Positions 1,783 to 46,867 of a stretch of 64,000 nt of DNA are shown one piece after another. The stretch is from assembly GCA_013335095.1 (NCBI GenBank), contig JAAXWF010000001.1, positions 22,797-86,796 of the forward strand, read 5' to 3'. Below the pieces are notes generated by a model. That model made no database searches. It had not been told where the DNA came from and saw nothing but the letters and a program-made list of their open reading frames with translations. Origin of the DNA: a candidate division WWE3 bacterium. Its GTDB lineage: Bacteria; Patescibacteriota; 4484-211; GCA-002791395. Every line of letters begins with the position of its first letter. Position 1 is the stretch's first letter. Position numbers and translations under genes: made by a program.

Positions 1783-1812
1783 AAAAAAATGCCCCCGTGT
1801 TTCCACGAGGGC
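1783..1812 (-). terminator. GAAA-tetraloop terminator hairpin, copy A (gcccccgtgtttccacgagggc preceded by A7 on plus strand)
   Basis: On minus-strand RNA it folds as a 9-bp stem with one G-U pair, a GAAA loop and a U-tract. On the plus strand the same position is a C-A mismatch. Confidence 0.7.
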
Positions 1813-2943: not shown

Positions 2944-3061
2944 AGAGCCCTCCATCGTAATCCAAAGGAGCCCAGTGCTCCTCCGCCATTCGCGTCAACT
3001 AATTGTATAAGAAATACACAACAAAGTAAATACTATAGGATCACACAGGTATTAATCGTCG

Positions 3062-5013: not shown

Positions 5014-5153
5014 ACAAACACTATAACGGGAATATATTTCTGCTGCAATAGAATTGTTTAATTGAATAAAGGAAAGTTTAAAACAAAGTGCAATTTCTAG
5101 CCTGTTTCTTATTAACCTCAAAACAGGCTCAGAAATGCAATTTTAGATAAATC

Positions 5154-5507
5154 TTACCAGCGATTTCCGCCGCCTCGATTATATCCACCACCATTTCGGT
5201 TTCCACCATTCCGGTTTCCGCCACCTCGATTACCACCGCCTCGATTTCCTCCTCGATCCTCCATAGGACGAGCTTCATTAACAACTAATGTTCGACCTTC
5301 GATCTCATAATTGTTGAAACGACTAATCGCTGCTGCTGCGTGTTCATCATTCGCCATTTCGACGAATCCAAAGCCTTTGCTTCGTCCCATTTCACGATCA
5401 ATAATGATGTTTACGGTGTCGACTTGGCCAGCTTGCTGAAACAGCGCTTCGAGGTCGCGTTCGGTCATTGAGTATGGTAATCCACCTACAAATAATTTTT
5501 TTGCCAT
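5154..5507 (-). CDS. RRM-type RNA-binding protein with glycine-rich C-terminus (paralog 1)
   Basis: RNP-1 KGFGFVEM and RNP-2 LFVGGL; GGNRGGG repeats; ggaggtg RBS. Confidence 0.85.
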   Translation of the reverse strand: MAKKLFVGGLPYSMTERDLEALFQQAGQVDTVNIIIDREMGRSKGFGFVEMANDEHAAAAISRFNNYEIEGRTLVVNEARPMEDRGGNRGGGNRGGGNRNGGNRNGGGYNRGGGNRW

Positions 5508-5650
5508 TGTAATCACCTCCGATTCTGATTTTGACTTGTTAATATGGAAATAGTTAAAAAACAAAAGGGCAATACAAAAACGCCTTTTCCGATTAAAAAT
5601 TTACGCACATGCTGCCCTAAATCACGGGTGTGCGTATATTATACGCTATA
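5508..5650 (-). promoter_or_regulatory. Promoter (TATAAT) plus about 120-nt conserved 5' leader of RRM gene 1
   Basis: Minus strand reads gcgTATAATatacgcacacccgtgatttaggg; blocks shared with the RRM2 leader. Confidence 0.5.
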
Positions 5651-5741: not shown

Positions 5742-6131
5742 ATGAAATACATACCCCTTATCCTGGGTACTGCTCTTTTTTTAGTGCTAAATGTTTTATT
5801 CGTATATCCACAGTATGTGATTACTCAACAAAACCTGGATTGTCCTGCTGGATGTGTTATTGAAACAGGAGTTCCATTTCCATGGAAAAAACTTCATACG
5901 AGCTCCGTTATTATTAACATACGAGAGCCTGACCCTGAGTATTATTACAATTATAATTACTTAGCAATTGATTTAATCTTTTGGGCAGCCATCAGTTATG
6001 GTACGAGTTACGGTATGGCTATGATACTACAACATTTAGAACCCAAGACACAGTTATCACAACAAGAAGCAAGTATAAAACCGAAATCCACGAGAAGGAA
6101 AAAAGGGATCACCAAACCAAAATCTAAATAA
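5742..6131 (+). CDS. Hypothetical small membrane protein
   Basis: N-terminal hydrophobic segment; lysine-rich C-terminus. Confidence 0.4.
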   Translation: MKYIPLILGTALFLVLNVLFVYPQYVITQQNLDCPAGCVIETGVPFPWKKLHTSSVIINIREPDPEYYYNYNYLAIDLIFWAAISYGTSYGMAMILQHLEPKTQLSQQEASIKPKSTRRKKGITKPKSK

Positions 6132-6158
6132 AAAAAGCCCCCGTGTTTCCACGAGGGC
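6129..6158 (-). terminator. GAAA-tetraloop terminator hairpin, copy B
   Basis: Identical 22-nt core to copy A; A-tract on plus side gives a U-tract for the minus gene 6180-6950. Confidence 0.7.
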
Positions 6159-6179: not shown

Positions 6180-6950
6180 TTACTTTTCTACCTTGACGAC
6201 GATATAGTCGCCGATTTCTCCCGACAAACCGTGTGAGACCGCGGTCTTAAGAAAATCCGCGATAGCGTCGGCATTAGTGCGACCGATGCCATGCATTCGC
6301 GGATTTGTATTCAACCGAGCTCGCATCGCCCCACACAGCTGGCCCCGCGACGCCTTCGGATCATAATACACCTCGATGTGAGGCTTTTCGATCCACCACA
6401 GGAGCCGATCGGCATGCTTCATCATCGCCAGCTGTGCAGCTACCTTTCGGAGCTGTTCGGGCGTGACTTGCAGAAACTTCATGAGTCCAGCCAGCTGGTC
6501 GAGACTCATCGAATCCTCGTGGCCAGCACATCGGGCGATAAACCCGAGTAGAACTGACGTCGGATGAACCTGCCGATCACACAGATGATGGAGCAAAAAC
6601 TCCATCGCCCCGGCGAGATCCCCCCATGCAGTATTGTAGCTATCAGGAATAATCCTGGCTGGGAGCTCGCCTTCGTCACGGACACCGGCAGTGGGTACAT
6701 ACTCAAACCCTAAGAAGTACTCCACGGTGGCCGTTGGTGCGGCCATGCTCAGAAAGATATCCTGAGGCGTGGGATGGGCTAAATACTGTGCCACAGCCTC
6801 AGCGTGGTCACGGACCTCAATGATGAGGACCCGGCGCCACCGATCCTTTTCCGAAACGAGGGCGTAAATCTCCTGAACAGTCGGTACTCGATCTCCTGGG
6901 AAAACGAGCACTAAAAATGGTGCTCGCTGCTCCGGATCATGTGTCGACAT
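6180..6950 (-). CDS. Hypothetical protein (high-GC); intact copy of the family that includes 7096-7828
   Basis: ORF 6180-6980; ATG 6950 with aggagg RBS. Confidence 0.55.
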   Translation of the reverse strand: MSTHDPEQRAPFLVLVFPGDRVPTVQEIYALVSEKDRWRRVLIIEVRDHAEAVAQYLAHPTPQDIFLSMAAPTATVEYFLGFEYVPTAGVRDEGELPARIIPDSYNTAWGDLAGAMEFLLHHLCDRQVHPTSVLLGFIARCAGHEDSMSLDQLAGLMKFLQVTPEQLRKVAAQLAMMKHADRLLWWIEKPHIEVYYDPKASRGQLCGAMRARLNTNPRMHGIGRTNADAIADFLKTAVSHGLSGEIGDYIVVKVEK

Positions 6951-7047
6951 ACGTCGCCTCCTGGTAAGTAAACCTTCCACAGCCGCTTAAAACGGTAGAC
7001 ACATTATAGTATTAAAGGGACATTTACGCAAACTATGGGATTTAACT

Positions 7048-7080
7048 AAAAAAATATACCCCCGTGTTTCCACGAGGGTA
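7048..7080 (-). terminator. GAAA-tetraloop terminator hairpin, copy C
   Basis: tacccccgtgtttccacgagggta preceded by an A-tract. Confidence 0.65.
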
Positions 7081-7095
7081 TGCAAAGGACTCGAT

Positions 7096-7455
7096 TTATC
7101 CGATACGACAATCGACCTTCGATATGGTAACTCCTTTTAGTAACCTCAATTCAGATGATCGATTGACCATCTCCATGGCGATGAGAGTCGAAACATCGGC
7201 CAAAACCAAACAACCAGATAATGGCCAATATTGAACAAGCACCGAGACGAGCTGGTCTAGCGATGTAATTTGCGATCCCGTTGTACGCGAAAGAGTGGGC
7301 GGGATATGACGAACCAGCTTCAGAATACCCGATGGAACTGGTTCTTCTGGCATAATAAAGACACGAGCAGACCGATAGCCAAACACGATTGCCGCCCGGC
7401 CCAAAGTGCGAGCGTCGACAGTGGTCGCCACAGCAACCCCCTTATGTATCCACAA
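7096..7455 (-). pseudogene. Fragment homologous to the middle/C-terminal part of the 6180-6950 protein (SLDQL..., LIAMEM blocks); probably a disrupted paralog
   Basis: Colinear similarity to 6180-6950 in a different frame from the adjacent N-terminal fragment. Confidence 0.4.
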
Positions 7456-7543
7456 TGTGCGCTTAGGATTATAGGTTTATTATACCAACACAATCAAAAT
7501 AATAAAAACCCCCATGATTATTTCACAGGGGCAACGTTGTTAT

Positions 7544-7828
7544 TTAATAAACGTCAGTCGGATTCGATTCTGGTAGCGGAGTGAATCCGACAAAAACGCT
7601 TCGACACCGATCGGGAGCACTACGGCTCAAGAACATTCGCCACGGTGTACGCTCATTAATAAAATGGTCGATGGCGTCTTGCATTCCAGCGACTTGCCGG
7701 ATAATGATCCGCCGAAATCGCTCATCTTTATGGAGTAAATCCCGAACAGTTTCTTCGGTGGGAATGGGATCATCCCCGAAGACAAAAACGATAATAGGCG
7801 CATATCCTTCTGGGTTAATGCCGTTCAT
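7544..7828 (-). pseudogene. N-terminal-domain fragment of the same family (APIIVFVFGDDPIPT... resembles APFLVLVFPGDRVPT...)
   Basis: Stops after about 94 aa whereas the paralog continues; a degenerate terminator-repeat copy lies in the gap at 7503-7531. Confidence 0.4.
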
Positions 7829-8900: not shown

Positions 8901-9443
8901 ATGAACTATAAATTCAGAATACTTATTGCCATCAATGCAATATTTGTTTTAGCAGGAAGTCTATTTGTGCCTTTATTCTCTCTTTTTGTAGAATACTTAG
9001 GCGGAAATGCACAATCTGCTGGCATAATGTATGCTACACAATTTACCTCAGCGCTTATTACGAACATCTACATTCTAAAACTAAATGACTCCAAACGTCT
9101 CGCAAAGTTACTTCTAACAATTAATTATGCGCTAAAGGGGTTTAGTTGGCTAATGCTATGCCTATTTCCCGGATGGATAATGCTCTTTGTTGTCCAAGTA
9201 CTAGGAGGGATAACACAAGCATTGGGAACCCCAGGATTTAATGTCTTAATAACAGAACGACTCGATAAAAAACAGCATATTAGGGAATGGGGATCGTGGG
9301 ATTTAGTCCAAAATATTTCGATCGCACTTGGAAGCATTATTGGCGGTAGCATTGCATATTATTATGGCTTTACGCTTCTTTTTTTAATAATGAGTGTACT
9401 GAGCTTTTTTGCCTTAGCGTTACTCTTAACGGTAAAAATATAA
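8901..9443 (+). CDS. Six-TM protein resembling the N-terminal half of an MFS transporter (truncated?)
   Basis: Motif-A-like LNDSKRLAKL between TM2 and TM3; no second half downstream. Confidence 0.4.
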   Translation: MNYKFRILIAINAIFVLAGSLFVPLFSLFVEYLGGNAQSAGIMYATQFTSALITNIYILKLNDSKRLAKLLLTINYALKGFSWLMLCLFPGWIMLFVVQVLGGITQALGTPGFNVLITERLDKKQHIREWGSWDLVQNISIALGSIIGGSIAYYYGFTLLFLIMSVLSFFALALLLTVKI

Positions 9444-9517
9444 TGGGTAAAAGCCCCCGTATATGTTGCCTATACAACAATCGACATTGAACTTATATAA
9501 TTAATTCTGTTGGCCCT

Positions 9518-11182
9518 ATGCGAAAAAAGAATTTACACGTTTCAAGTGACCTAATCATCTTGATTGGAGGTTTCTCAGCAAGCCTTATTGGTGTATTTCT
9601 TGTCGTCTCAGCTTTATTTCCTACCAGCAATAATTCAAATATATTGACCACTAAACTAACACAGACACAAGCGGCAAACAGTTTTACCGATACATTTGAT
9701 GGGAAACCGACATCACCACAACCATTTACCCAAATAGGACAAAGCACCTGGGATATAGCCATACAATCACGGAATCCAGACACGTGGGATACGTTAGTTC
9801 CATTCCAGATGATGCATGGACCTAACTGTGAACCACCACTTATGACTGGCGCGACAGCTCCATATGATCATCATGAATTAATGGTTCATGACTGGGATGG
9901 GAATTATGATAGTGCGGTATTTAAATGTGCCGACCATATCATGACCGGAATTTATGGAATTGGGCGATCTATTAATGATGGATATGCAATGATTGCATTA
10001 ACTCCTAATCAAATGGTTGATTTTACCAACGGACCCGCAACAATACGGTGGGATATGACGACGTTTAGAACAACTCAACGTGATTGGGTTGATGTGTGGA
10101 TCACGCCCTATGACGATAACCTCCAGTTACCATTTGATACAGGTGATGTAGATTTACAAGGAATGCCAATGAATACAGTGCACTTAACAATGACCGCACC
10201 GAATGATAATTCAAAAACAGGTTTCAAACCGACCATAATTATTAATGGACAAGATACCGGTGAATTTCAACAGTTTACCGGTGACTATGATTCATTTTTG
10301 GCCTATGAAGATTATTTACCATCAAAAGCAGGAGATCCAAAACGTCGTGATACGTTTGAAATTACCATAAGCAAAACTCATCTTAAAATGTGTATGCCTC
10401 AAGATACCACTGATAATGCTCCATCTGAGACACTGTGTTGGGTCGATAAGAATATCAAGTCATTACCATTCACAAAAGGGGTGGTTCAATTCGCCCATCA
10501 CTCGTATACACCAAATAAAGACTGCGATTTTTACACGCCCTTACCATGCGGTCCGGACACGTGGCATTGGGATAATATATCAATTTCACCTTCGGTACCA
10601 TTTACCATGATTAAAGCCGATCAAAGAGCGGTACGAGGCGAGACACAGGTTGTCACATTTACTCAATCGGCTCCGGCGAACGCTAAATTGCGCTTTAGTG
10701 CAATTGGATCAGTTCAACTCAGTTTTAATAACGGTTCTTTTCAGTCTGTTACAAACCAATCATCAACCTTATACCACTCAGATCATTTTGCTTCATATTT
10801 TGTAAATATCCCACAAGGGACATCAACAGTTCGGTTTAAATTATCCGGCTCAGAGGTTATGGCAAAAGATTTCGCGATTTGGTCACAAGCAGCGCCAACA
10901 GGGACAACTCCGACACCAATCATAACAACGGCTCCATCACCCACCACACAACCAACACGCACTCCAACCCCAACGATTACGGGAACGACTGTTCTAGGAG
11001 ATATTAACCGGGACCGTATCGTTAATGTATTAGATCTGGGAATACTTGTTGGACTGTATGGGCGTCAAACATCTAGTGATGTAGCAAATGTGAACTTGCA
11101 GCGATCTGATTTAAATGGAAATGGATTAATAGACATTTACGATATTGGAATCCTCTCGGCAAACTACGGTAAAACATACTAG
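9518..11182 (+). CDS. Secreted protein with Pro/Thr linker and C-terminal type-I dockerin module
   Basis: N-terminal signal anchor; PT-rich linker; duplicated Ca-binding segments DINRDRIVNVLD / DLNGNGLIDIYD. Confidence 0.6.
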   Translation: MRKKNLHVSSDLIILIGGFSASLIGVFLVVSALFPTSNNSNILTTKLTQTQAANSFTDTFDGKPTSPQPFTQIGQSTWDIAIQSRNPDTWDTLVPFQMMHGPNCEPPLMTGATAPYDHHELMVHDWDGNYDSAVFKCADHIMTGIYGIGRSINDGYAMIALTPNQMVDFTNGPATIRWDMTTFRTTQRDWVDVWITPYDDNLQLPFDTGDVDLQGMPMNTVHLTMTAPNDNSKTGFKPTIIINGQDTGEFQQFTGDYDSFLAYEDYLPSKAGDPKRRDTFEITISKTHLKMCMPQDTTDNAPSETLCWVDKNIKSLPFTKGVVQFAHHSYTPNKDCDFYTPLPCGPDTWHWDNISISPSVPFTMIKADQRAVRGETQVVTFTQSAPANAKLRFSAIGSVQLSFNNGSFQSVTNQSSTLYHSDHFASYFVNIPQGTSTVRFKLSGSEVMAKDFAIWSQAAPTGTTPTPIITTAPSPTTQPTRTPTPTITGTTVLGDINRDRIVNVLDLGILVGLYGRQTSSDVANVNLQRSDLNGNGLIDIYDIGILSANYGKTY

Positions 11183-11279: not shown

Positions 11280-11591
11280 TTACCAGCGATTTCCGCCGCC
11301 GTTATTGTAACCACCTTCGCGATTATCGCGATTTCCACGTGGTACCATTGGGCGAGCTTCGTTCACCTGAAGTTTTCGGCCACCGAGTTCATAACCATTA
11401 AACATGTTTATTGCATTCGCAGCTTCTTCATCAGATGACATTTCTACAAATCCGAACCCTTTACTGCGACCGGTTTCTCGATCAACAATAATTTGAACAG
11501 ATTGAATAGCGCCAGACTGTCCGAACAAGTCTTGTAATTCTTGTTCAGTAGTAGAGTAAGGTAATCCACCTACAAATAATTTTTTAGCCAT
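11280..11591 (-). CDS. RRM-type RNA-binding protein (paralog 2)
   Basis: KGFGFVEM RNP-1; aggaggtg RBS. Confidence 0.85.
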   Translation of the reverse strand: MAKKLFVGGLPYSTTEQELQDLFGQSGAIQSVQIIVDRETGRSKGFGFVEMSSDEEAANAINMFNGYELGGRKLQVNEARPMVPRGNRDNREGGYNNGGGNRW

Positions 11592-12153: not shown

Positions 12154-12169
12154 GTACGTATCATAACAA

Positions 12170-12212
12170 AAAAGGCGCGAGGATGTTACTCCCCGCGCGT
12201 GTATTAACCCAC
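12170..12212 (-). terminator. Terminator hairpin (gcgcgagg...ccccgcgc); minus-strand fold has a G-U pair, plus-strand has a C-A mismatch
   Basis: Same motif repeated at 13049-13083. Confidence 0.55.
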
Positions 12213-12229
12213 CGACACCAGCCAGACCC

Positions 12230-12895
12230 CTAGATCAGCTCGGTATCTTTGACCATCGAGAGGGCTGCCTGCGCCATGTTACCTAATCGAACCCGATCGA
12301 TATCGACGACAGGATAAAAACACCGATGGCTAATGTATTGGGCAAGAGGTTCGTCCCGATAGAAGGCGCGCCGCTCAACCCACACCCCCGAGATCCTGTC
12401 ATATATCTTGATAATATACGACCGGCTTACGTGTAACATCTCCGTTGGTTCGTAGCAGATCGCTAGACCATCCAACTGAGGGCGAATATAACTCAGGTCC
12501 CCCCCAGCTAAAGCAAACGTTACCATATCCAGAATCAGGTCCTTACCTGCGCGCAGTCGTGGAGACACGGTGACGCCACCAGCCAAGACCTGATCATAGA
12601 CCGCGCGACGCGATTGCCGAATCAGTTGCCGAAGATCGCTCGGCAGCTGATCCCGGTGAATAAGGACCTCAGTTATGGCCAATGCCGTAGCATACCGTTC
12701 ACCTTCGGGGATTTCGCCATTGAAGCTTATTGACCCCAAGCCTAATAGCCCCAATGAAATTGTCACCTTCCCATGAGAGGTGATCAAGCAGACCATCCAT
12801 TGATGGTTGTCCGTTGGTTGAGTTGCCCTACTGACCTCGACCTGACCGAAGATCGTTTCGATCGTGAGCTTATTGTCCGAAGTTACTGCGTCCAC
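12230..12895 (-). CDS. Hypothetical protein (high-GC), tandem paralog A
   Basis: 221 aa; alignable throughout with 13099-13797. Confidence 0.55.
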   Translation of the reverse strand: MDAVTSDNKLTIETIFGQVEVSRATQPTDNHQWMVCLITSHGKVTISLGLLGLGSISFNGEIPEGERYATALAITEVLIHRDQLPSDLRQLIRQSRRAVYDQVLAGGVTVSPRLRAGKDLILDMVTFALAGGDLSYIRPQLDGLAICYEPTEMLHVSRSYIIKIYDRISGVWVERRAFYRDEPLAQYISHRCFYPVVDIDRVRLGNMAQAALSMVKDTELI

Positions 12896-13048
12896 GAAAT
12901 GTCCTCCTCAAGTGATGTCGAACACACGACTCCCTATTCGGTCGATATCCCAGACGTTAAATCTGTCCTCGAATCGAGGCAGATAAGTATCTAATGTTTT
13001 AGGTACTTGGCTGCCTTGACTGACTTTTTCAAAATAATAGAGTAAAAA

Positions 13049-13083
13049 AAGGCGCGAGGATGTGAATCCCCGCGCCCGCGTAC
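13049..13083 (-). terminator. Second copy of the gcgcgagg/ccccgcgc terminator
   Basis: aaaaaaaggcgcgaggatgtgaatccccgcgc. Confidence 0.55.
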
Positions 13084-13098
13084 CCGACTTGAACCGAC

Positions 13099-13797
13099 TT
13101 ACTTCTGGACCTGGTCCAGCCAGTTGTCGTAGACCACGAACCCCGTCTGCCCGATCATCGGATAGAGAAGGCTAGCGCTGGCCACAATCGTCCTGGCCAA
13201 CCCTTCCGGATCGTCCCCCAACGTCGCCGTCGGGAAAAACCGGAGGAGGTCAATCTGAGGATGCCCGTCTGTTAGATGGACAATTGTCTGCTCGGCATAC
13301 ACGCCGAGGTGACCGTCCAGCTCCCGCATCATGTAAGCACGAGTGATCCGGAGAGCCTCGCGATAGATAAAGCTAATCTCCACCCCGCCGTTCACCATCC
13401 GAACCACGCTCCCGCCACGCATGGCAAAGGCTATCATGTCGGCAGCGAGCTCAGTACAGGCGGTGGTCTGCCGCGACCACAGCACCTCTTTGCCGACGAC
13501 ATTATGGTACATTTCGTACCGATGGCGGCGCAGAGCGGCTTCGAGCTCCTGGGGCACCTGCGGGTGCCCGATCAGCAGTTCGATCAGCGAGAGGGTCATG
13601 GCCCTCTTCTCATTGGCAGGCTCGCCGCCGGGCCGGCTCATCAAGCCATCCCGATCGATGCTGAACAGGAACCCGCCAGCATAGTCTGCCCAGATCTCGT
13701 ACCGCCTATCATCCAGGCCGGTCCGGGGCGGGATCTCGATCCGGACGTTGCCGAACGCGGTCTCGATCACGATCTGGTTAGCCTTAGTCGTGGGCAT
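13099..13797 (-). CDS. Hypothetical protein (high-GC), tandem paralog B
   Basis: 232 aa. Confidence 0.55.
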   Translation of the reverse strand: MPTTKANQIVIETAFGNVRIEIPPRTGLDDRRYEIWADYAGGFLFSIDRDGLMSRPGGEPANEKRAMTLSLIELLIGHPQVPQELEAALRRHRYEMYHNVVGKEVLWSRQTTACTELAADMIAFAMRGGSVVRMVNGGVEISFIYREALRITRAYMMRELDGHLGVYAEQTIVHLTDGHPQIDLLRFFPTATLGDDPEGLARTIVASASLLYPMIGQTGFVVYDNWLDQVQK

Positions 13798-14607: not shown

Positions 14608-14637
14608 AACCGCCGTAGGTTACCCCACGGCGGCATA
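14608..14637 (-). terminator. Hairpin ccgccgtagg/cccacggcgg with U-tract for minus gene 14656-15036
   Basis: Inverted repeat preceded by A7 on plus strand. Confidence 0.55.
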
Positions 14638-15048: not shown

Positions 15049-15399
15049 TTAGAACTTTGCGAACCACTGTCCGCTAAATCGAATCTCCGGATACCCTTCG
15101 ATCACCAGCCACTGGCGGTGTCCGACAGCAACCAGAAGCGGTTGCCAGCTCTCATCCGGCAAACACGCTGGACTGTGGTACTCGCCATCATGATGATGAC
15201 AAGCAGGCTCATCGACAGGAACCGGAATGACCTCCCTCACCCGAAATGGGCCGCACCCATAGCTCCGAAGGTGGAGCTCTTCCATCAGATTGGTATGGGA
15301 CTCGCGATCCCAAACGACCAGATCACCAGGAGCAAATAGCTCCCGCTCCATTGCCGCAGTCTGCGGGTCAGTAGAAACCGCCACAAGCGTGGGACTCAT
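15049..15399 (-). CDS. Hypothetical Cys/His-rich protein (CHHHDGEYHSPAC)
   Basis: ATG 15399 with aaggaggg RBS. Confidence 0.5.
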   Translation of the reverse strand: MSPTLVAVSTDPQTAAMERELFAPGDLVVWDRESHTNLMEELHLRSYGCGPFRVREVIPVPVDEPACHHHDGEYHSPACLPDESWQPLLVAVGHRQWLVIEGYPEIRFSGQWFAKF

Positions 15400-15630
15400 C
15401 GTACCCTCCTTGCATGGCTCAATTCCTCGCCATCCCGGCGACACAATAGGTGCGTATCATTTTAATAGATTCCCGACAATAAATCAAACACTATAGGTAA
15501 CCGCATCAAGATGGAGTCGCAGCAGCTTTATTTGTTATAAATACATATTTTTGATACAATCGGTCCGTCCTATAAGACAATTCAGGAGTCTGAAAAGCTG
15601 CTGAATTTGGCTGGTTTCAAAGGAGGGTCA

Positions 15631-17838
15631 ATGGCCGCCAAACAGGAAGTCCTAAACCTGGAGCGATTCTCAGGGGCCGCACGGAATCTACTCCGCGATG
15701 CCCTAATAATCGCCTCCGAGGCCGAACACAAGTCCTACGTCAGCTTCGAGCATCTGCTACTGGCGATTCTACAATCGACAGACGCGAATGCATACCGGCT
15801 GCTGGTGGACGCCGGATGTGAACCGGAACGACTCCGGGCAACTATCCGGGCTACGGCTGTTCGAACGCCTCAGGTTAATGGGGTGCTACTCACACACGGT
15901 GAGCTATCGCTGCCGCTTAGTACTGATGCCGCCCGCATTATCGAACGATCTCGTGAAGCTGCATCAAAATTCAGTGCAGCTAAAATCGGATCGGATCATC
16001 TGCTACTGGCGATGTTCGAGGTTGACGAAAGTCGAATCGTCCTCGTCGCAGCCGGCGTTCGCGTTGAAACGATCAAAAGCCTCGTGCTTGAGATCCACCA
16101 AAGCGGACACACCGAAAAAGGTGATGCGGCAATCATCGGCCTGGAAGAGCTTGGCACTCAAGCAGGCCAACTCGAGCCGATCATCAACGTGACTATCGTT
16201 GACGCACTCTGGACACTGTGGACTCATCGTCGCTTGCCGGGGGTCCTATTATTCGCCGAGAGTGGCGCGCCAGCTTGGGATCAAATCCTTGGTCTGGTAC
16301 GCCGACTAAGCTCAACCAAGGAGCCAAAGTTTAGCCTCATCGCGATTTCGCCCGATGCATATCTGAGTAACCCGATCCTGACGATTCAGGCGGCGATTCG
16401 GCGTGCATTGGATGAAAAAGCGATCTTGATCCTTCCCGATATTGGCCAATATGTAGGTCAAGTCGAAGACGGATTCACGACGGCAGTAAGCTTGGTTCGT
16501 GAGGCAGTGCAAAACAGCGGACTCAAGATAGTTGGGATCGCTGAACCGGCCTATCGATCAGTATTATCGAAGGATCGTCTGTTTAGTCGAATGAGGTTTA
16601 CAGACGTCGAAGCCACAACGATAGATCAAACGATCGCCTATATTACAAGGCTGATCGAGACTCTTGTTGATGGCCGAATTACGTTTGCTGAGGATACCCT
16701 CAAGCAAATTGTAGAACTCGCGGATCAGTATCTCCCGCGAGAGTTACCTGGCTGCGCGATTGACCTAACCTACGACGTAGTAGCCGCAGCCGAACTCGTC
16801 TTCGATCAGCAGCAAACTGAGTCGGTCCAGATTGATGGGAATCTCGTACTAGCTGTGCTAGAGAGGCTCACCAACCTTCCACTCGGTAAGCTGATTGGTA
16901 CAGAAAAAGAGAGACTGGCGCAGATGGAGGAAATCATCCATCGTCGCTACGTTAATCAAAAAGATGCAGTGACCGCACTGGCGCGCTCGATAAGGCGCAG
17001 TCGCACTGCATTCCGGGATAAACGACGCCCAATCGGCACGTTTCTATTTCTCGGAACAACCGGAACCGGCAAAACAGAGCTCACCAAAGCTCTGGCCGAA
17101 TTTCTGTTTGGGTCGGACGAAGCCCTGGTGGGCATCGATATGAACGAGTTTGCTGAACCACATACCGTGTCAGCACTACTTGGTTCACCCGTCGGTTATG
17201 AAGGCCACAGTCAGTCTACCCCACTGGATGTGGTTGCCCAACGACCATTTATGGTAGTCCGGTTCGATGAGATCGAGAAGGCACACGACGACGTGCTGCT
17301 TGCTCTGCTCGGACTGATGGAAAACGGATATATTACAACTCGGAGTGGACGAAGGATTAACTTCCGACACACGGTTGTGATTATGACGTCAAACGTAGGG
17401 TCGGAATACCTACGAGGAGAGGATCCAGGATCTGAAAAAGACCAAGCGCTCGCAGCGCTTAAGGATCGTTTTCGCCCGGAGTTCCTCAATAGGGTCGATC
17501 GAACGATCGTCTTTTCACCCTTTAGCAGTGACGATCTGCAGAAGGTTGCCGGGATGTTCCTGGCTTCAACGGTAAAAGAAGCCGCTGAAGAAGGGATCAA
17601 CCTGGTAGTCGCCGCCACGACCTTGCAGCAACTTGTAGCCAACATGGCTCAGGAGTGCAAACAATACGGCGCACGACCACTTCGTCGAGTCATTGATGTA
17701 CTCGAAGAGGTGATTGTCGATGGTATCGTTGCTGGCATATTCAAACCAGGACAAACCGTCGAGGTTCGATTCATGGATAATAAGTTGGAACCGGTCATCG
17801 TATCGGATACATCAGAGGAGGGAGCAGATCATGTCTGA
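15631..17838 (+). CDS. ClpC/ClpB-like AAA+ protein: two Clp_N repeats, degenerate NBD1 (Walker A replaced by ESGAPAWD; Walker B DE replaced by PD), intact NBD2 (GTTGTGKTEL, FDEIEKAH, GARPLRR)
   Basis: aaggaggg RBS; ATG 15631; motif comparison with ClpC/ClpB. Confidence 0.7.
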   Translation: MAAKQEVLNLERFSGAARNLLRDALIIASEAEHKSYVSFEHLLLAILQSTDANAYRLLVDAGCEPERLRATIRATAVRTPQVNGVLLTHGELSLPLSTDAARIIERSREAASKFSAAKIGSDHLLLAMFEVDESRIVLVAAGVRVETIKSLVLEIHQSGHTEKGDAAIIGLEELGTQAGQLEPIINVTIVDALWTLWTHRRLPGVLLFAESGAPAWDQILGLVRRLSSTKEPKFSLIAISPDAYLSNPILTIQAAIRRALDEKAILILPDIGQYVGQVEDGFTTAVSLVREAVQNSGLKIVGIAEPAYRSVLSKDRLFSRMRFTDVEATTIDQTIAYITRLIETLVDGRITFAEDTLKQIVELADQYLPRELPGCAIDLTYDVVAAAELVFDQQQTESVQIDGNLVLAVLERLTNLPLGKLIGTEKERLAQMEEIIHRRYVNQKDAVTALARSIRRSRTAFRDKRRPIGTFLFLGTTGTGKTELTKALAEFLFGSDEALVGIDMNEFAEPHTVSALLGSPVGYEGHSQSTPLDVVAQRPFMVVRFDEIEKAHDDVLLALLGLMENGYITTRSGRRINFRHTVVIMTSNVGSEYLRGEDPGSEKDQALAALKDRFRPEFLNRVDRTIVFSPFSSDDLQKVAGMFLASTVKEAAEEGINLVVAATTLQQLVANMAQECKQYGARPLRRVIDVLEEVIVDGIVAGIFKPGQTVEVRFMDNKLEPVIVSDTSEEGADHV

Positions 17839-18772: not shown

Positions 18773-18792
18773 TTTTAAACATGGGTTAAAAA

Positions 18793-18835
18793 AATAACCG
18801 CCGGGTGGTACCACAATGGTACCCACCGGCGGTTT
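18793..18835. terminator. Perfect bidirectional terminator (accgccgggtggtacc acaa tggtacccaccggcggt) with A-tract and T-tract
   Basis: 16-bp perfect inverted repeat between convergent operons. Confidence 0.85.
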
Positions 18836-18863
18836 TTCATATCTCTCTAACTCTAATTACTAC

Positions 18864-23096: not shown

Positions 23097-24521
23097 ATGA
23101 CCCCATCAAGTGGCACGTACCGTGAACATCTTGAGAATCACGGTATCTCGGTACGAACGGATCCAGTCTTGCCGTTTTTTCATTACGATAGAAACGGTAA
23201 GCTCGTCATCAGAGTATCAGGCTACTCCGACCTGGATCTGTTTGAGGTGTATGCAAGGTACGGTGCGGTTCAGCTGAACCTGCCCGATCTAGCAACACAA
23301 AGAGTACATCAGAGATGGGCCATTAATGGAGCGGCAGCAAAGGCTGCCCATTATCCCGAGGCAGTTCAAAGCGCCTATGCGACAAAAGCCAACGACTGGT
23401 ATCCAGTCGTTTCCCGAGTCGTTCGCGCCGGGTGTCATCAAGAGACCTCATCGCCATCGGGGGTCGCAGCAGCTCAGATACTTTGGGAAAGGGGCGAAAT
23501 TAGCCCAGAGCAGATGGTGATTTGTAATGGATACATTACAGCACCATATGCGGGCGCAATTCACGATTTGCGACATGCCGGATTTGCGAATACTATTCCG
23601 GTAATCGACAAAGAAAGCGTGCTGGCGCTCTTCCGACGCGACCATACGTGGCGATTCGGGATCCGGCAACGGGCTCATTTGCCCGCTCAAACAGACACCA
23701 AACCACACAAGGGTGTGTCTCGGTTTGGAATGGATTATGAAGAGCTCAAACGAGTCGCGATGATGATCCAGCGCAACCCCGGATGGGAGTTGGTGTTATA
23801 CCACTTCCACCTAGGTAGCCAGATCATCGATGAGGATAATTTCCTCGGCGGGTTACTGTCTGCAGCGACTAACTACTGTCGACTCAGGCAACAGGTCCCA
23901 ACCCTTCAATATCTTGATATTGGAGGAGGCGCACCAGTCCAATACGGCCTAACCCCACTCACGATTAATCTAGAGCTATTGCTCACTAGATTCTTGGTGA
24001 GCTTAAAGGACCTGTGTACACACTTTGACGTTCCCTGTCCGACGGTCATCACAGAATGGGGACGGTTCACGGTAGCGCCAAGCGAGCTACGGATGATGGA
24101 AATCCGGGCTCAATATGAACCTGGATTTATTCAAGTCCATGACACAATTATGGGCTCATTGGCGGATAATTGGGCAATCAAGCAACCGTTCCCAGTACTT
24201 TCTCTGGCGGGGCTTGACCACCCGACGACACGAGGCAAGATCGTTGGGCTAACCTGCGACGAAGATGATTGTCTATTCACGGAAGACGACAATCATGTGA
24301 CCATCGCTCGTCCAGATCGATTTCGGACTCCCGGGTCCGAGGTTTTGGTAGTTGCCAATACCGGCGCATACCAGTCAAACCTCGGGAATCTGGAGCACTG
24401 CATGCAGTTGCAGGAGGCGGTAATTGCCGCGTATCTCCATCGCGGGCAGTGGGTGTTTGAGACGGTCCGTCCCAGACAAATGGCCAAAGACATGCTCAAG
24501 CTGTTTGGCTGGCCTGTATAG
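23097..24521 (+). CDS. PLP-dependent decarboxylase, fold type III (Orn/DAP/Arg decarboxylase family; arginine-decarboxylase-like)
   Basis: YATKAN PLP-lysine motif, HFHLGSQ, DIGGG motifs; taggagg RBS. Confidence 0.6.
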   Translation: MTPSSGTYREHLENHGISVRTDPVLPFFHYDRNGKLVIRVSGYSDLDLFEVYARYGAVQLNLPDLATQRVHQRWAINGAAAKAAHYPEAVQSAYATKANDWYPVVSRVVRAGCHQETSSPSGVAAAQILWERGEISPEQMVICNGYITAPYAGAIHDLRHAGFANTIPVIDKESVLALFRRDHTWRFGIRQRAHLPAQTDTKPHKGVSRFGMDYEELKRVAMMIQRNPGWELVLYHFHLGSQIIDEDNFLGGLLSAATNYCRLRQQVPTLQYLDIGGGAPVQYGLTPLTINLELLLTRFLVSLKDLCTHFDVPCPTVITEWGRFTVAPSELRMMEIRAQYEPGFIQVHDTIMGSLADNWAIKQPFPVLSLAGLDHPTTRGKIVGLTCDEDDCLFTEDDNHVTIARPDRFRTPGSEVLVVANTGAYQSNLGNLEHCMQLQEAVIAAYLHRGQWVFETVRPRQMAKDMLKLFGWPV

Positions 24522-24542: not shown

Positions 24543-24577
24543 GGGGCGAGCGGAAACGTTCGCCCTTTTTTTATCAC
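24543..24577 (+). terminator. Hairpin gggcgagcg gaaa cgttcgccc followed by T8
   Basis: Inverted repeat plus T-tract. Confidence 0.7.
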
Positions 24578-26124: not shown

Positions 26125-26152
26125 AAAGGCAGCGAGTTTCCCCGCTGCCCGA
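26125..26152 (-). terminator. Hairpin ggcagcg...cgctgcc with U8 on minus strand, 3' of 26175-26786
   Basis: Inverted repeat preceded by A8 on plus strand. Confidence 0.6.
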
Positions 26153-26955: not shown

Positions 26956-29262
26956 ATGATCGAAAAGACCTCTAAACAATTAATAACCTTCATGACGATT
27001 GTGAGTTCATTCATGATCGTTGCATTGTCCCTACTATTTATTGATAGTTACGGTTCTAAAACAGCTTCAGATAATCGAAAATCAGCCAGTGCTGCTCAAA
27101 ATACTGGTAATTATGTACTCTATACCCAAACAGACATTGACAATATCAAGGCTCAAATCAATTCAAATACCACCATTAAAAATGCTTATAACGACCTCAT
27201 CACTAAGGCAAATGAAGATTTAAATGGCTCATTCCATTTCTACGGTGGAACTTCACATACCGCAAATAGCCAAGCATCACGAGCCGCGCTTAGACTAGCT
27301 CTGGCATACAGGCTTACGGGAGATACGCAGTATGCATCGAAAGCAAAAAGCGTGGTTATGACCGTTACGAGTGCATCAACTATGGTAACTGATGATCCAT
27401 CAATACCCGACAAAGCAACCGCATCGGATAGTCTTTTGTTATATGGGGTCGATACTCCAGGCATGATTCTTGCAGCTGATTTTCTTGATACTTATCCTGG
27501 GTTCAATTCAAGTGAAAAGCAGTCGGTAAAAGATTGGTTTAACGCGACAGCGCGAAGCGCTATGACTCTTCATTACAACACCAAAGTACAAGCTGAAGCC
27601 GGACGTGAATATATGGATCTTGGGTTTACGAACTATAACAGTTGGAGAGTTGTTTTAATTATGACTGCGGGAATATATACCAAAGATTCTGAATTATTTA
27701 ATTTTGCAGTTAGTTATTTTAAAAACTCCCTCATGGAAGAAATGTTTAATTCTTTAGGAGTAGCCGTATGGGAAGTACGAAGAATCACGACAAAAACCTA
27801 TTACTACTCTCACTATACAATTTCGGGAATGCTGCAATTAATTATACTTGCGCGAAAACAAGGAGTCGATCTTGCCAGCTATAAAAATTCTGCCGGGGCG
27901 AATCTTAAAACAGTTCTGGATTATTATTACCAGTTTGCGAACGGTACGCCGTGGCCTTATGAAGGAATAGAAGGGTCTAATCCTCCAAAATATTCTGATG
28001 TATGGGAAAACTTTGAAGCAGGTTATTTTATGTATAAAGACTCAAGATATAACACGCTCATAAATTCCTATCGACCGACATACTGGAGGTCTGGCATCAT
28101 GACTCCCAACACGTTATTTTTCTTAAGTAGTGATTTCAATAATCCTTCAAATCCGATAACGCCAAACCCGACCACAACAGGTGCGCCTACAGCAACACCC
28201 ATACCAGTACCGACCGGTCGAATAAATCCATCGCCACGATTGCCGATCTCGCCATATAATTCGACCGGAACGCCGTGGGCAATACCCGGAACAATTGAGG
28301 CGGAAAGTTTCGATAATGGTGGTGTGGGGATTGCCTACTACGACACTGATTCAGACAATATTGGCGGAGCATATCGATCGACAAGCATTGATATTGATCC
28401 CTACAGTAACGGTAATTACAGCGTAGCATGGATTAGGCCAACAGAGTGGCTACGGTATTCGGTGTTTGTCCAAACACGCGGGATATATGACATTAAACCT
28501 CGAGTCGCCTTCAAAGGACCGGCAGGAAATTTTGATATTGAGATTGATGGCAAAGTCGTCGGTAGTTTTACCATACCTGATACAAAAGAATTTAGCGCAT
28601 TTACCGATATAACCGTAGGAAATATTCAGCTAGAAACCGGATATCATGTACTTCGAATTATTGCAGTCAGTGCAAATGAGGGTAGTTACGATGGATTGAT
28701 GGGAGATATTGATAAATTCACCTTCGTCTTAACTAAAAACCTTTCTACGTCACCGAATACCCAATCGCCCGCTGCGGTACCAGGAAAAATCGAGGCGGAA
28801 AACTTTGACCGAGGTGGCGAAGGGATCGCATATCATGACACCAAGACTGGCAACGAACTTGTGATTCAAAATAAAGGCGGGATTGATTACCGACCAGGAG
28901 AAGGTGTCGATATTGGGAAAAACGCAAATGGCGCAACCTATGTCGGCTGGATTGAAAATACCGAATGGTTAGTCTACACCATTAACGTAACTGAAGATGG
29001 CTATTACCACCTATCGGCACAAGCTGGATTTAATGGCGCTGGTGGAAGCTTCGATCTTGAGATTGATGGTAAGACTCAAGGGCACTTTACTATTCGAGAT
29101 TTGGGTGCATGGGATATTTACACCACCATACCTGCATGGCCTCCGTATATCAGGTTAACCAAAGGTACACATACCCTTCGGCTCATCGCCAAACAACGAC
29201 CTGGTGTATCCACCTATCAAAATCTTCTCGGTGATATCGATTATTTCGAAATTTCAAAGTAA
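26956..29262 (+). CDS. Secreted alginate-lyase/heparinase-II/III-like (alpha/alpha)6 toroid domain protein with two C-terminal CBM6-like modules
   Basis: Signal peptide; AYRLTGDTQYASKA motif shared with 32473-34503 and 48996-50897; two repeats IEAE(S/N)FD.GG.GIAY.DT...W..Y. Confidence 0.5.
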   Translation: MIEKTSKQLITFMTIVSSFMIVALSLLFIDSYGSKTASDNRKSASAAQNTGNYVLYTQTDIDNIKAQINSNTTIKNAYNDLITKANEDLNGSFHFYGGTSHTANSQASRAALRLALAYRLTGDTQYASKAKSVVMTVTSASTMVTDDPSIPDKATASDSLLLYGVDTPGMILAADFLDTYPGFNSSEKQSVKDWFNATARSAMTLHYNTKVQAEAGREYMDLGFTNYNSWRVVLIMTAGIYTKDSELFNFAVSYFKNSLMEEMFNSLGVAVWEVRRITTKTYYYSHYTISGMLQLIILARKQGVDLASYKNSAGANLKTVLDYYYQFANGTPWPYEGIEGSNPPKYSDVWENFEAGYFMYKDSRYNTLINSYRPTYWRSGIMTPNTLFFLSSDFNNPSNPITPNPTTTGAPTATPIPVPTGRINPSPRLPISPYNSTGTPWAIPGTIEAESFDNGGVGIAYYDTDSDNIGGAYRSTSIDIDPYSNGNYSVAWIRPTEWLRYSVFVQTRGIYDIKPRVAFKGPAGNFDIEIDGKVVGSFTIPDTKEFSAFTDITVGNIQLETGYHVLRIIAVSANEGSYDGLMGDIDKFTFVLTKNLSTSPNTQSPAAVPGKIEAENFDRGGEGIAYHDTKTGNELVIQNKGGIDYRPGEGVDIGKNANGATYVGWIENTEWLVYTINVTEDGYYHLSAQAGFNGAGGSFDLEIDGKTQGHFTIRDLGAWDIYTTIPAWPPYIRLTKGTHTLRLIAKQRPGVSTYQNLLGDIDYFEISK

Positions 29263-29329
29263 CACATCCAGATAAAGTAAAGCGGCCGATGATAGGTTCA
29301 TACCATCGGCCAACTGTGAATATGTAAAA

Positions 29330-29743
29330 TCACCATGGGATATCCTCTCCACCATCTAGTATCCATGGCAATACTTTGTGAATCACGCCCAAGTGAGTTG
29401 CGAGTTCTATCTGACCCCACGTTACTCGGCAAGCACTTGGATGTTTCGTCGCAAATAGATATGCCCTCGACATAACATCGATGTGCATATTGCTCGTATC
29501 GATAACCAGCCACCCTTCTTTTTTAGAACAAAGTGGAGTGATTGGAGCCGTGATGATCTGACACCCATGCTGATCATGACCATGATAAAGCGCATGACCG
29601 GCGTGGATGATTAACGCCTGAATTTCGGGTTTGAAGTGCTCAAATCGAACTTCATTTGAACGTATTACGGAAAGAGTTTCCGAGTTACCAGGACAAACCT
29701 GATATTCTCCGGCTAGATCAGCCGGATCCAAGAGGAGTTGCAT
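29330..29743 (-). CDS. Hypothetical His-rich protein (HAGHALYHGHDQHG); paralog of 29873-30109 N-terminal region
   Basis: gaaggagg RBS; shared LLDPADL...VRFEHFKPE.Q block. Confidence 0.5.
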   Translation of the reverse strand: MQLLLDPADLAGEYQVCPGNSETLSVIRSNEVRFEHFKPEIQALIIHAGHALYHGHDQHGCQIITAPITPLCSKKEGWLVIDTSNMHIDVMSRAYLFATKHPSACRVTWGQIELATHLGVIHKVLPWILDGGEDIPW

Positions 29744-29818
29744 AACTTCCTCCTTCATGAAGTTTCAGACAAGCAATTCCGACCGTTATTATACGATCTG
29801 AATGTAACTAGAACAAAA

Positions 29819-29850
29819 AAACCGGCAGGAAAATTTCCTGCCGGGACGCA
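29819..29850 (-). terminator. Hairpin ccggcagg aaaattt cctgccgg with U7 on minus strand
   Basis: Perfect 8-bp inverted repeat. Confidence 0.65.
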
Positions 29851-29872
29851 TATATGTGGGCGCTGATTTTAT

Positions 29873-30109
29873 CTAGCCACGAACTTGATCGCCGTCGAAG
29901 ACGACGCGAGGTGGAATGATCGCATTATACGAGGATCGATCCCAAGTGAAGTAGGTCGCCTCGCCGACCCTTCGGATTACGTCCTGCACCTCAGGCTTGA
30001 AGTGCTCGAAGCGAACAAGCGAGGGATTCAGTGTTGGCATGATTCCGCCGTTTTCCGTAGCTTCCTGATGTTCCGGCTTAAGATCGGCCGGATCGAGTGT
30101 GAGTCTCAT
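29873..30109 (-). CDS. Short paralog (78 aa) of the 29330-29743 N-terminal domain
   Basis: agaggag RBS. Confidence 0.45.
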   Translation of the reverse strand: MRLTLDPADLKPEHQEATENGGIMPTLNPSLVRFEHFKPEVQDVIRRVGEATYFTWDRSSYNAIIPPRVVFDGDQVRG

Positions 30110-30192
30110 CGAGAATCTCCTCTAGTGGGCTTTCACCCTCCAGAAATTCGCCACAAAGACACTATTATTATAACAGATCGACTATAGGATAA

Positions 30193-34598: not shown

Positions 34599-35054
34599 TT
34601 AGAGAATCGCGGCAGCGACCTGCCTTGATGAGGGCATTAAGTAGTCGAGATACGGGATATGTTCGATCGTACATCGGTAATGGGATCCGACCCCATATGG
34701 CACCCCGACATCGACCATAAGCCCGGTACCCAGCCGACTCATATAATAGAGCTGAGTCGCACCCACATCGACCGCCGTTTCGCCAAGAAGAGGATCTTCA
34801 TGGCGGCGGATTCGGAATGTAACCTCAAGAGCCCGCCGTGTATTAAACACACGGAAGGCCCCCATCGAATGTACCGCCAAAACGACCCGTTGCTGCGCAT
34901 GAGATGCTCGTTCGAGCAACTCAAGGCCGTTTTCTCCCACGGCAAGCCAAATATTACGATACCCTGGAGTATCATAATCAGCGAACCTCATAAATTGCTG
35001 TTGAACACTACCATCGTTCATCCAGGAAACCTGGATACCGGTAGAACCAGGCAT
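34599..35054 (-). CDS. Hypothetical protein (high-GC)
   Basis: ATG 35054 with aggaggg RBS; terminator-like hairpin agcggagg/cctccgct at about 34565-34590. Confidence 0.5.
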   Translation of the reverse strand: MPGSTGIQVSWMNDGSVQQQFMRFADYDTPGYRNIWLAVGENGLELLERASHAQQRVVLAVHSMGAFRVFNTRRALEVTFRIRRHEDPLLGETAVDVGATQLYYMSRLGTGLMVDVGVPYGVGSHYRCTIEHIPYLDYLMPSSRQVAAAIL

Positions 35055-35173
35055 AGCGGCCCTCCTATCAATGACAGGAACCATAGTAAGTGTAGAGAGT
35101 ATAAAAAAAGCCACCATGGAAGTCAAACAGATCTATATTCGATAATTTATTAAGGTGTACAATACAATTAATT

Positions 35174-46393: not shown

Positions 46394-46867
46394 ATGCAAA
46401 CAATTACTCCGTTTCTCTGGTTTAATAATAACGCTGAAGAGGCAATCAACTTATACACATCTTTATTCAAAGATTCTAAAATATATTCTATTACCCATTA
46501 TCCAAATGATTCCGGTGAAATGTCAGGAAAGGTATTAACAGCGGTGTTTGATATAAATGGCCAACGTCTTATGGCTCTGGACGGCGGACCAACATTTATG
46601 CTCTCCGAAGCTTTTTCTTTATTTGTCGAATGTGATACTCAAGAAGAAGTCGATTTTTTATGGGAAAAATTACTTGAGGGAGGAACACCGCAGCAATGTG
46701 GTTGGCTTAAAGATAGATTCGGATTGTCGTGGCAAATTATCCCTAAAGCATTAGGCAAATTAATGAATGATCCGGATCCTCAAAAATCACAAAGAGTTAT
46801 ACAAGCAATGTTATCAATGGTAAAAATTGATATTAAAGTATTGGAAGACGCATACAACGGAACATAA
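46394..46867 (+). CDS. PhnB-like VOC-family protein (PF06983-type)
   Basis: ITPFLWFNNNAEEA...CGWLKDRFGLSWQI pattern. Confidence 0.6.
   Translation: MQTITPFLWFNNNAEEAINLYTSLFKDSKIYSITHYPNDSGEMSGKVLTAVFDINGQRLMALDGGPTFMLSEAFSLFVECDTQEEVDFLWEKLLEGGTPQQCGWLKDRFGLSWQIIPKALGKLMNDPDPQKSQRVIQAMLSMVKIDIKVLEDAYNGT

Follow-up and report, generated by a model that had tools for sequence, protein, structure and literature searches.

A strand-specific GAAA-loop hairpin family, probably a reused terminator, behind GC-rich genes of a candidate division WWE3 bacterium

The hairpin family and the genes in front of it

The 64-kb window analysed here, taken from contig JAAXWF010000001.1 of an uncultivated candidate division WWE3 bacterium (metagenome assembly GCA_013335095.1, positions 22,797 to 86,796), harbors ordinary chromosomal genes of the accessory type, for RRM RNA-binding, HIT, GNAT, MFS and Nramp proteins, a two-component system and alginate lyases with dockerin and cohesin modules, and no phage genes have been found among its scanned open reading frames (ORFs). 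Five minus-strand copies of a short hairpin, designated A to E (Table 1), lie just past the stop codons of GC-rich genes in this window. A preliminary description of the sequence had proposed a family of five strand-specific copies, and a pattern search, RNA folding and a covariance model trained on these five all agree with it, the spans of C and D being those of Table 1. The pattern proposed in that description has exactly four clean matches in the window, all on the minus strand, where none is expected and none was obtained in 100 shuffles. Copies A and B show no mismatch to it, E shows none given the degenerate positions of the pattern, and C shows two (ACCC...GGGT). A repeat finder has independently returned the family as a 29-nt unit which includes the A/T run. 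Read on the plus strand, positions 1783-1812 (copy A) are aaaaaaatGCCCCCGTGTTTCCACGAGGGC.

In minus-strand RNA the copies fold into stems of 9-11 bp with one U-G wobble, closed by a 4-nt GAAA loop in four of the five, and all stem positions are paired. RNAfold energies for A to E are -18.7, -18.6, -18.7, -14.7 and -17.0 kcal/mol on this strand, compared with -13.0, -13.2, -14.1, -9.3 and -11.9 kcal/mol on the plus strand, where the stem contains an internal C-A mismatch; fold z-scores of the copies range from -3.9 to -6.4. A U-tract (at least five T within 8 nt past the stem) is present on the minus strand in 5/5 copies and on the plus strand in none. The GAAA loop, the G-U pair and the one-sided U-tract noted previously are thus borne out by folding both strands, with the minus strand favored by about 5 kcal/mol. 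Copy C has A-U in place of G-C as its closing pair, and its pairing extends over 11 bp (7056-7081); copy E shows the same replacement at pair 7/16 (G7A/C16T). In the diverged copy D, 10 bp, three of them G-U, enclose a loop of 5 nt. The covariance model assigns 36-51 bits to the five copies and 21 bits to the next best site in the window; training members match such a model by construction and its E-values are rough. No match in the window reaches an Rfam gathering threshold, the trpB-motif giving a sub-threshold match near copy D (31.8 bits; gathering score 59). An alignment of 160 nt around each copy has revealed no similarity beyond the stem-loop and T-tract, with identity stopping at the base of the stem.

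When two further copies from a related genome are included (see below), the hairpin has the orientation of its upstream gene in 7/7 cases and lies 11-28 nt past the stop codon. Copies B and E are located in convergent gaps, where their hairpins lie 5 and 3 nt past the stops of the low-GC genes 5742-6131 and 46394-46867, respectively. Between the end of each U-tract and the stop codon of the native plus-strand gene there are 0-3 nt, and in copy B the tract ends in the complement of TAA, the stop of gene 5742-6131. Considering that B and E have no U-tract on the plus strand, they are not classical bidirectional terminators. The earlier statement that copies occur only behind high-GC genes is accurate for all seven, with the qualification that B and E also lie past convergent low-GC stops, antisense to those genes and without a U-tract in that direction.

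The ORFs in front of the hairpins have a GC content of 0.48-0.59 (Table 1), compared with 0.36-0.43 for the neighboring native genes. Every unit has a sigma-70-like promoter-like site and a Shine-Dalgarno box of its own. In the E unit, a CCCATAGT motif precedes TTGACT-17-TACAAT, behind which come a GGGGAG box, the ORF and the putative terminator, and D, C and B are arranged head to tail as promoter-ORF-terminator units from 7950 down to 6129. Searches with the flanking proteins against Pfam, NCBIfam, PADLOC and PDB sequences were all empty, and the proteins of the A unit have no match in any family library searched. Among 5.8 billion proteins, the product of gene B matches only its own entry (HGA91_00170, hypothetical protein), and its C-terminal half is distantly similar to a 151-amino acid (aa) protein of the related genome. 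ORF C was skipped by the Logan gene caller and no homolog of it has been found; nor was homology found to the 119-aa gene which carries the same hairpin variant in the related genome. The possibility that the C region is a structured non-coding RNA was considered and rejected (z-score -1.2). Other assemblies with window proteins are confined to Logan contigs of run SRR11449211.

Hairpin likeness is decoupled from gene likeness, as is apparent from three comparisons. The proteins of A, B and C are mutually unrelated, yet their hairpin cores are identical, the closing pair alone differing in C. Genes B and D are paralogous, but theirs is the most dissimilar hairpin pair. Behind two other high-GC paralogs, 12230-12895 and 13099-13797, a second hairpin family had been pointed out in the preliminary description and is recovered here: the proteins are 29% identical (E=1e-16), whereas the terminators are 94% identical over 31 nt. 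The 13099-13797 product (232 aa, HGA91_00220) likewise matched only itself among the 5.8 billion proteins, and its AlphaFold2 model reaches a confidence (pLDDT) of only 55.

Table 1. Coordinates of the hairpins, the genes in front of them and associated elements. Positions are those of the window unless L044, a contig of the related genome, is named; terminator assignments are putative.
Feature	Position	Strand	Description
Copy A	hairpin 1791-1812; whole element 1783-1812	minus	GCCCTCGTGGAAACACGGGGGC, followed by an A+T7 tract; 21 nt past stop of ORF 1834-2355
Copy B	hairpin 6137-6158; element 6129-6158	minus	identical to A (GCCCTCGTGGAAACACGGGGGC), followed by T7; 21 nt past stop of gene 6180-6950
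Copy C	hairpin 7058-7079; element 7049-7081	minus	ACCCTCGTGGAAACACGGGGGT, T-rich tail; 16 nt past stop of ORF 7096-7455
Copy D (diverged)	hairpin 7508-7532; element 7499-7532	minus	GCCCCTGTGAAATAATCATGGGGGT, T-tract 7499-7507; 11 nt past stop of gene 7544-7828
Copy E	hairpin 46871-46892; element 46864-46892	minus	GCCCTCATGGAAACATGGGGGC, followed by T5; 28 nt past stop of gene 46921-47301
L044 copy	L044 137-164		GCCCTCGTGGAAACACGGGGGC, followed by T6; 28/28 identical to copy B
L044b copy	L044 744-765		ACCCTCGTGGAAACACGGGGGT; 22/22 identical to copy C
L044 second-family hairpin	L044 2783-2808		both stem arms unchanged, loop alone differs
Copy A unit	1834-2955	minus	two ORFs: 2368-2955 (195 aa, GC 0.55) and 1834-2355 (173 aa, GC 0.59)
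Gene B	6180-6950	minus	256 aa from ATG behind an AGGAGG box; GC 0.55; HGA91_00170
ORF C	7096-7455	minus	119 aa, GC 0.49; promoter 7497-7468; coding status uncertain
Gene D	7544-7828	minus	94 aa, GC 0.48; paralog of gene B N-terminus (33% identity, E=1e-14)
Gene E	46921-47301	minus	126 aa, GC 0.50; unit ~46868-47385 between two native low-GC genes
Motif CCCATAGT	7032-7039	minus	directly 5' of gene B -35 (TTGCGT-17-TATAAT)
Other motif sites	3032-3039 (A unit); 15490-15497; 30181-30188; 47377-47384 (E unit); 53667-53674	minus	
Second family, copy 1	12168-12198 (hairpin 12175-12198)	minus	GCGCGGGGAGTAACATCCTCGCGCC, followed by T6; behind gene 12230-12895
Second family, copy 2	13045-13077 (repeat 13050-13077)	minus	GGGCGCGGGGATTCACATCCTCGCGCCT, followed by T7; behind paralog 13099-13797
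GNRA-loop (GTAA) terminator	14609-14634	minus	GCCGCCGTGGGGTAACCTACGGCGGT; best non-member of the covariance model, 21 bits
GAAA-loop terminators, different stems	24543-24566; 26127-26150		used by the same gene class

Conservation in a related genome and occurrence elsewhere

Searching 1.84 billion representatives with a profile of the two paralogs has yielded a single new relative, P0004 (E=9e-12), whose gene lies on L044, a Logan contig of 5.7 kb that belongs to another run (SRR21121619). This contig is syntenic with the window from 15.4 to 11.2 kb, sharing the succession of high-GC genes, GNAT, high-GC genes (including P0004), HIT and RRM. Amino acid identity is 42% for GNAT, 72% for HIT and 88% for RRM, and HIT-RRM DNA is ~73% identical; the intergenic region between HIT and RRM is conserved to the same degree (~73%) as the coding DNA. 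The nearest RRM homologs after L044 fall to ~70% identity, which indicates that the lineage is sparsely sampled.

Both of the main hairpin variants and the second family recur on L044 (Table 1), each behind a high-GC gene of the same orientation (GC 0.57-0.62). Two variants being unchanged in a relative with ~73% identity, the hairpins are best seen as held fixed in sequence. The high-GC genes of the window and of L044 have 23-31% identity or no detectable similarity. In the slot between GNAT and HIT, the window contains the two paralogs (232 and 221 aa; 12230-13797), whereas L044 contains an unrelated 148-aa gene and P0004 (1471-2757). This difference suggests that high-GC genes turn over at fixed chromosomal positions. 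The public call of the L044 GNAT gene (726-1385) starts inside the hairpin, translated there as TLVETRG; this call is probably an artefact, with the real start likely near 790.

Across the seven copies, 63/63 stem cells are paired, and two pairs carry double substitutions, the closing pair (G-C to A-U in C and L044b) and pair 7/16 (G-C to A-U in E). The change at pair 7/16 had been put forward as classic covariation. The two double substitutions and the complete pairing stand, but the wording was too strong: the observed covariation score is reached by 80/500 shuffles for the five window copies and by 17/500 for the seven. The U-G wobble at pair 5/18 is retained in 6/7 copies, and no single-base (wobble) variants exist among six copies in two diverged genomes, an observation more striking than the covariation.

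In public data, the 596 Gb of GTDB genomes contain the 22-mer pattern at 20 loci, or about 1 per 30 Gb, and metagenomes contain it at 19, neither the source genome nor a close relative being among the matches. These loci belong to unrelated phyla, mostly have a T-tract behind the hairpin and are in no case related to the window, where the density is about a million-fold above that of public genomes. Six copies of the 22-mer occur in one metagenome-assembled genome (MAG), the Oligoflexia MAG RHO2_bin_34, as part of a larger repeat (cccgcgaaagcat-hairpin-gggaatctcc) that lacks a T-tract and looks like a separate element of the repetitive extragenic palindromic (REP) type in an unrelated bacterium. 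A 20-nt core is also present in 24 IMG/VR viral contigs (GC 0.32-0.47, most of them low), as CCCCTCATGGAAACATGGGGGG followed by T's in 22/24 and as a CG variant in 2/24. The viral CCCCTCATGGAAACATGGGGGG hairpins are found in terminator position behind varied genes, with the wobble at the same position, an independent reuse of nearly the same hairpin. Its occurrence in unrelated phyla and in viral contigs implies that the hairpin sequence is easy to evolve.

A phage or plasmid origin of the region was considered and rejected. Megablast of 1-12 kb against phages was empty, a viral scan for the 22-mer gave 0 hits and PHROGs gave none. A profile of the paralogs had no match in viral loci, and the viral contigs which carry the core encode nothing related to window proteins.

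The GC-rich gene class and its putative terminators

Gene composition in the window is bimodal. Native genes have a GC content of 0.33-0.43 and a third-codon-position GC content (GC3) of mostly 0.23-0.41, whereas about 26 genes have a GC content of 0.42-0.61 and a GC3 of 0.44-0.78. These raised-GC genes are situated within 1-26800, with isolated members at 29885-30187, 34599-35126, 46921-47301, 52087-52461 and 53188-53595. Most have no match in Pfam, NCBIfam, PADLOC, PHROGs or PDB, the annotated exceptions being a ClpB-like ATPase (15607-17838), an Orn/Arg decarboxylase-like protein (23097-24521), an M23-peptidase/Big_7 protein (60881-63355), a DinB-like protein (53716-54198) and DUF7919 (53188-53595). 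The class is best seen as a set of lineage-specific, fast-evolving, mostly orphan genes which are organized as insulated single transcription units.

A custom scan for hairpins followed by T-tracts was applied to all 71 ORFs of the window, using a GC3 cut-off of 0.44 and regarding a terminator as strong when its folding free energy was -12 kcal/mol or lower within 130 nt. Strong terminators follow 22/26 ORFs with GC3 at or above the cut-off and 7/45 of the lower ones (Fisher p=2e-8). When only the ends of transcription units are considered and the intergenic gap is searched, the figures are 20/21 for high-GC3 and 5/36 for low-GC3 units (Fisher p=8e-10), and 3/5 of the low-GC exceptions have a borderline GC3 of 0.40-0.44. 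GC-rich surroundings favor stable hairpins, yet the sites lie in AT-rich gaps and a T-tract was also required. Source sequence outside the window was available for 9.7 kb on the left (contig L085, 689-10371) and 0.5 kb on the right, bringing the total read to 74 kb. In the left extension, strong terminators are associated with 5/6 raised-GC genes, while 0/4 low-GC genes have one of their own; no copies of the hairpin family were found in these 9.7 kb. The tie between hairpin and high-GC genes put forward in the preliminary description therefore holds, but is not specific to this hairpin, nearly all strong terminators of the window following high-GC genes. The "high-GC cassettes" of the same description should not be taken for a recent import, since the divergent L044 has the hairpins and one of the gene families in syntenic positions.

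A promoter-side motif is also associated with this class. The octamer CCYATAGT occurs 9 times in the window, compared with 2.7 expected, and 0/100 shuffles reach 9. Six of the nine sites are on the minus strand and lie directly 5' of, or overlap, the -35 box of raised-GC gene promoters (Table 1), the genes behind them being the A unit, B, 15049-15444, the ORF at ~29885-30187, E and 53188-53595. The single CCYATAGT of L085 (3270-3277, minus strand) has the same position, before a gene with a GC3 of 0.65, and on L044 CTCATAGT (5090-5097) is located ahead of the promoter of the B-related gene. CCYATAGT may serve the raised-GC class as a common operator or promoter element. The complement of the motif, ACTATAGG, was also considered as a T7-like promoter and rejected, given that the upstream specificity region is unconserved and that transcription from it would leave the genes.

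The repeated hairpin is only one of several terminators that serve the high-GC class. In addition to the second family, two terminators with GAAA loops and different stems are used by these genes, and one with a GTAA loop (14609-14634) lies just before the GNAT gene, in the slot occupied by the C-type copy in L044; this terminator may be a diverged relative of the hairpin family. Between two convergent high-GC genes, a long and near-perfect palindrome (AACCGCCGGGTGGTACCACAATGGTACCCACCGGCGGTT, 18788-18842, about -29 kcal/mol) has T-tracts on both strands and looks like a true bidirectional terminator. At 29609-30016, tandem related minus-strand ORFs share a 42-nt stretch with 76% identity, each with its own strong terminator (29283-29312 and 29822-29844), and the upstream ORF has a CCTATAGT promoter motif. 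A further remnant of the hairpin, previously suspected at 9449, did not hold up: it consists of a single arm matching at 8/9 bases, a kind of match found 11 times against 8 expected, and at E<=10 it is missed by the covariance model. The sequence there comprises a half-length MFS gene (8901-9461, 180 aa, profile positions 3-171 of 347), followed by aaaaGCCCCCGTA.

Several other features of the window have been recorded. Two RRM paralogs with 70% identity and Gly/Arg/Asn-rich tails (5154-5564 and 11280-11591) are located inside the high-GC cluster. Dockerin-bearing alginate-lyase, CBM6, CBM35 and PA14 proteins, one of them with both cohesin and dockerin, are encoded at 9518-11182, 26956-29262, 32473-34503, 41003-41863, 44224-45057 and 48996-50897, and look like a cellulosome-like polysaccharide-degrading set in a genome of the candidate phyla radiation (CPR). 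A direct repeat of 254 nt with 85% identity (60080-60333 and 63745-63998) is located at the starts of two ~244-aa paralogs (60071-60805 and 63739 onward) and coincides with breaks in the Logan assembly.

Interpretation and comparison with known systems

Taken by itself, the hairpin is an ordinary terminator; what stands out is its stereotyped and class-specific use. The sequence is best accounted for, with a probability of roughly 0.75, by a Rho-independent terminator module which has been reused behind unrelated GC-rich genes and subsequently fixed in sequence. In this scheme the minus-strand mRNA would fold into a G+C-rich stem of 9-11 bp, closed by GAAA and containing one U-G wobble, and at the U-tract, 11-28 nt past the stop codon, the transcript would be released from RNA polymerase. 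One module would thereby close several unrelated, separately promoted genes of a distinct class, whose members would share one layout, namely a sigma-70-like promoter (CCYATAGT being present beside the -35 box in several cases), followed by a Shine-Dalgarno box, the ORF and finally a strong hairpin with U-tract, native low-GC genes being mostly without such terminators. Either one copy would have given rise to another or all would go back to a common source, and the copies would then have been held fixed.

Several points weigh against this interpretation. Termination is deduced from the anatomy of the element. Covariation is compatible with selection for pairing, but offers thin evidence of it. 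The 22-mer arises independently elsewhere, so some copies, especially E, could be convergent. A stable stem would suffice for a pure terminator, and both the unrepaired U-G pair and the absence of wobble variants would need an additional constraint or a recent spread. The sequence covered amounts to 74 kb of this genome and 5.7 kb of the relative, with no additional copy in the 9.7 kb outside the window.

Independent convergence on a near-optimal terminator, in which case the copies would form no family by descent, would be in line with the presence of the 22-mer in unrelated phyla, mostly with T-tracts, and of the 20-nt core as a terminator in viral contigs, as well as with the other terminators of the window that combine GAAA or GTAA loops with different stems and the lack of anything shared between copy flanks. 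The contrast between about one locus per 30 Gb in public genomes and four exact-pattern matches in 64 kb, with two more in the 5.7 kb of the relative, makes it improbable, as do the wobble, the loop and the T-tract common to the copies and the occurrence of both closing-pair variants in each genome; the quite different stems of other terminators in this genome indicate that nothing forces this particular sequence. A further requirement may be imposed if the terminator doubles as a 3'-untranslated region signal, read by a protein (for instance, the adjacent RRM) or by an RNase and controlling mRNA stability. Such a role would explain the perfect conservation of wobble and loop in six copies of two genomes ~27% diverged, and the class-wide promoter-side motif, which suggests co-regulation, and the two RRM genes inside the cluster agree with it. 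Only a small probability can be granted to it, however: most genes of the class use other terminators, and the RRM proximity may be coincidence.

Two further explanations were weighed. The imperfect palindrome with a strand-specific mismatch, its place 3' of same-orientation orphan genes and the decoupling of its likeness from that of the genes recall a mobile or recombinogenic palindrome which also terminates transcription, either of the REP/REPIN (REP doublets forming hairpins) type, mobilized by a Y1 transposase, or an attC-like cassette site. The differing content of the GNAT-HIT slot in the window and L044 and the Oligoflexia MAG, in which the 22-mer is held in a larger repeat without a T-tract, are in keeping with this. 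This explanation is quite improbable, however. The copies neither pair up in inverted orientation nor cluster, and past the stem no head or core site is conserved. At 22 nt and with its stem fully paired, the element is unlike sites of 55-140 nt that have extrahelical bases; conservation includes the T-tract, the units are separately promoted, and no transposase, integrase or reverse transcriptase was found among the window ORFs scanned. Arms of an uptake signal, resembling the DNA uptake sequence (DUS) and marking DNA for uptake among WWE3 relatives, would likewise produce identical terminators behind unrelated genes, as in the DUS pairs of Neisseria (PMC2397512), and the hairpin is unchanged between two diverged genomes; ComEC and DprA are encoded by CPR genomes (PMC3812714). 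Arms with at most one mismatch are nevertheless close to expectation in the window (GCCCCCGTG 11 against 8 expected, CACGAGGGC 14 against 8) and are mostly those of the hairpins, and five copies in 74 kb contrast with about one DUS per kb, which leaves very little probability for such a function. In an extended form of the terminator interpretation, the GC-rich orphan genes would be standard modules (CCYATAGT promoter, ORF and terminator) exchanged between lineages at conserved slots, the hairpin serving also as a signal for exchange, uptake or mRNA control; as a whole, we regard this as unlikely.

To our knowledge, transcription signals have remained almost unstudied in CPR bacteria. If the near-restriction of strong hairpin/U-tract terminators to the GC-rich class applies genome-wide, such terminators would offer an easy way to recognize, from sequence, an otherwise hidden set of accessory genes in these episymbionts, one that may be involved in host interaction. 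It would also prompt the questions of how transcription of native CPR genes is ended and by what means a 22-nt terminator is kept letter-perfect in diverged genomes. Three observations stand out, namely the identical hairpins behind unrelated genes, the unrepaired wobble, and a class that is GC-rich even though at least one of its families is syntenic in the relative.

A precedent for identical hairpins behind unrelated genes is found in the inverted pairs of DUS in Neisseria and of the Pasteurellaceae USS (uptake signal sequences), which form the identical arms of many Rho-independent terminators (PMC2397512). In the window, unlike DUS and USS, the arms are not dispersed singly and their density is far lower. 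REP elements, bacterial interspersed mosaic elements (BIMEs) and REPINs are similarly short, imperfect palindromes repeated in the genome at the 3' ends of genes, whereas here single copies occur in the orientation of the upstream gene, with no doublets, no head and a conserved U-tract, and no gene for a REP-associated tyrosine transposase (RAYT, Y1 transposase) was found among the window ORFs scanned with Pfam. Integron attC arrays also combine mostly orphan genes of the same orientation, each with a strand-specific imperfect palindrome, and their content varies between relatives. An attC site has an R''-L''...L'-R' architecture with a GTTRRRY core, 55-140 nt in length with extrahelical bases, and its cassettes are mostly promoterless. 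The present element is 22 nt, fully paired and devoid of core sites, its units have their own promoters and lie amid native genes, and neither IntI nor another tyrosine recombinase was found in the window. Phage morons resemble these units in being single genes of deviant composition with their own promoter and factor-independent terminator, but here there is no prophage context and the neighbors are ordinary chromosomal genes. The resemblance is greatest to canonical GNRA-loop Rho-independent terminators, from which the element is indistinguishable in its G+C-rich stem of 9-11 bp, its GAAA loop, its 3' U-tract and its placement, co-oriented with the gene, 11-28 nt behind a stop codon. It differs from them in that a 22-nt sequence is reused behind unrelated genes, frozen between genomes with ~73% identity and nearly restricted to one gene class.

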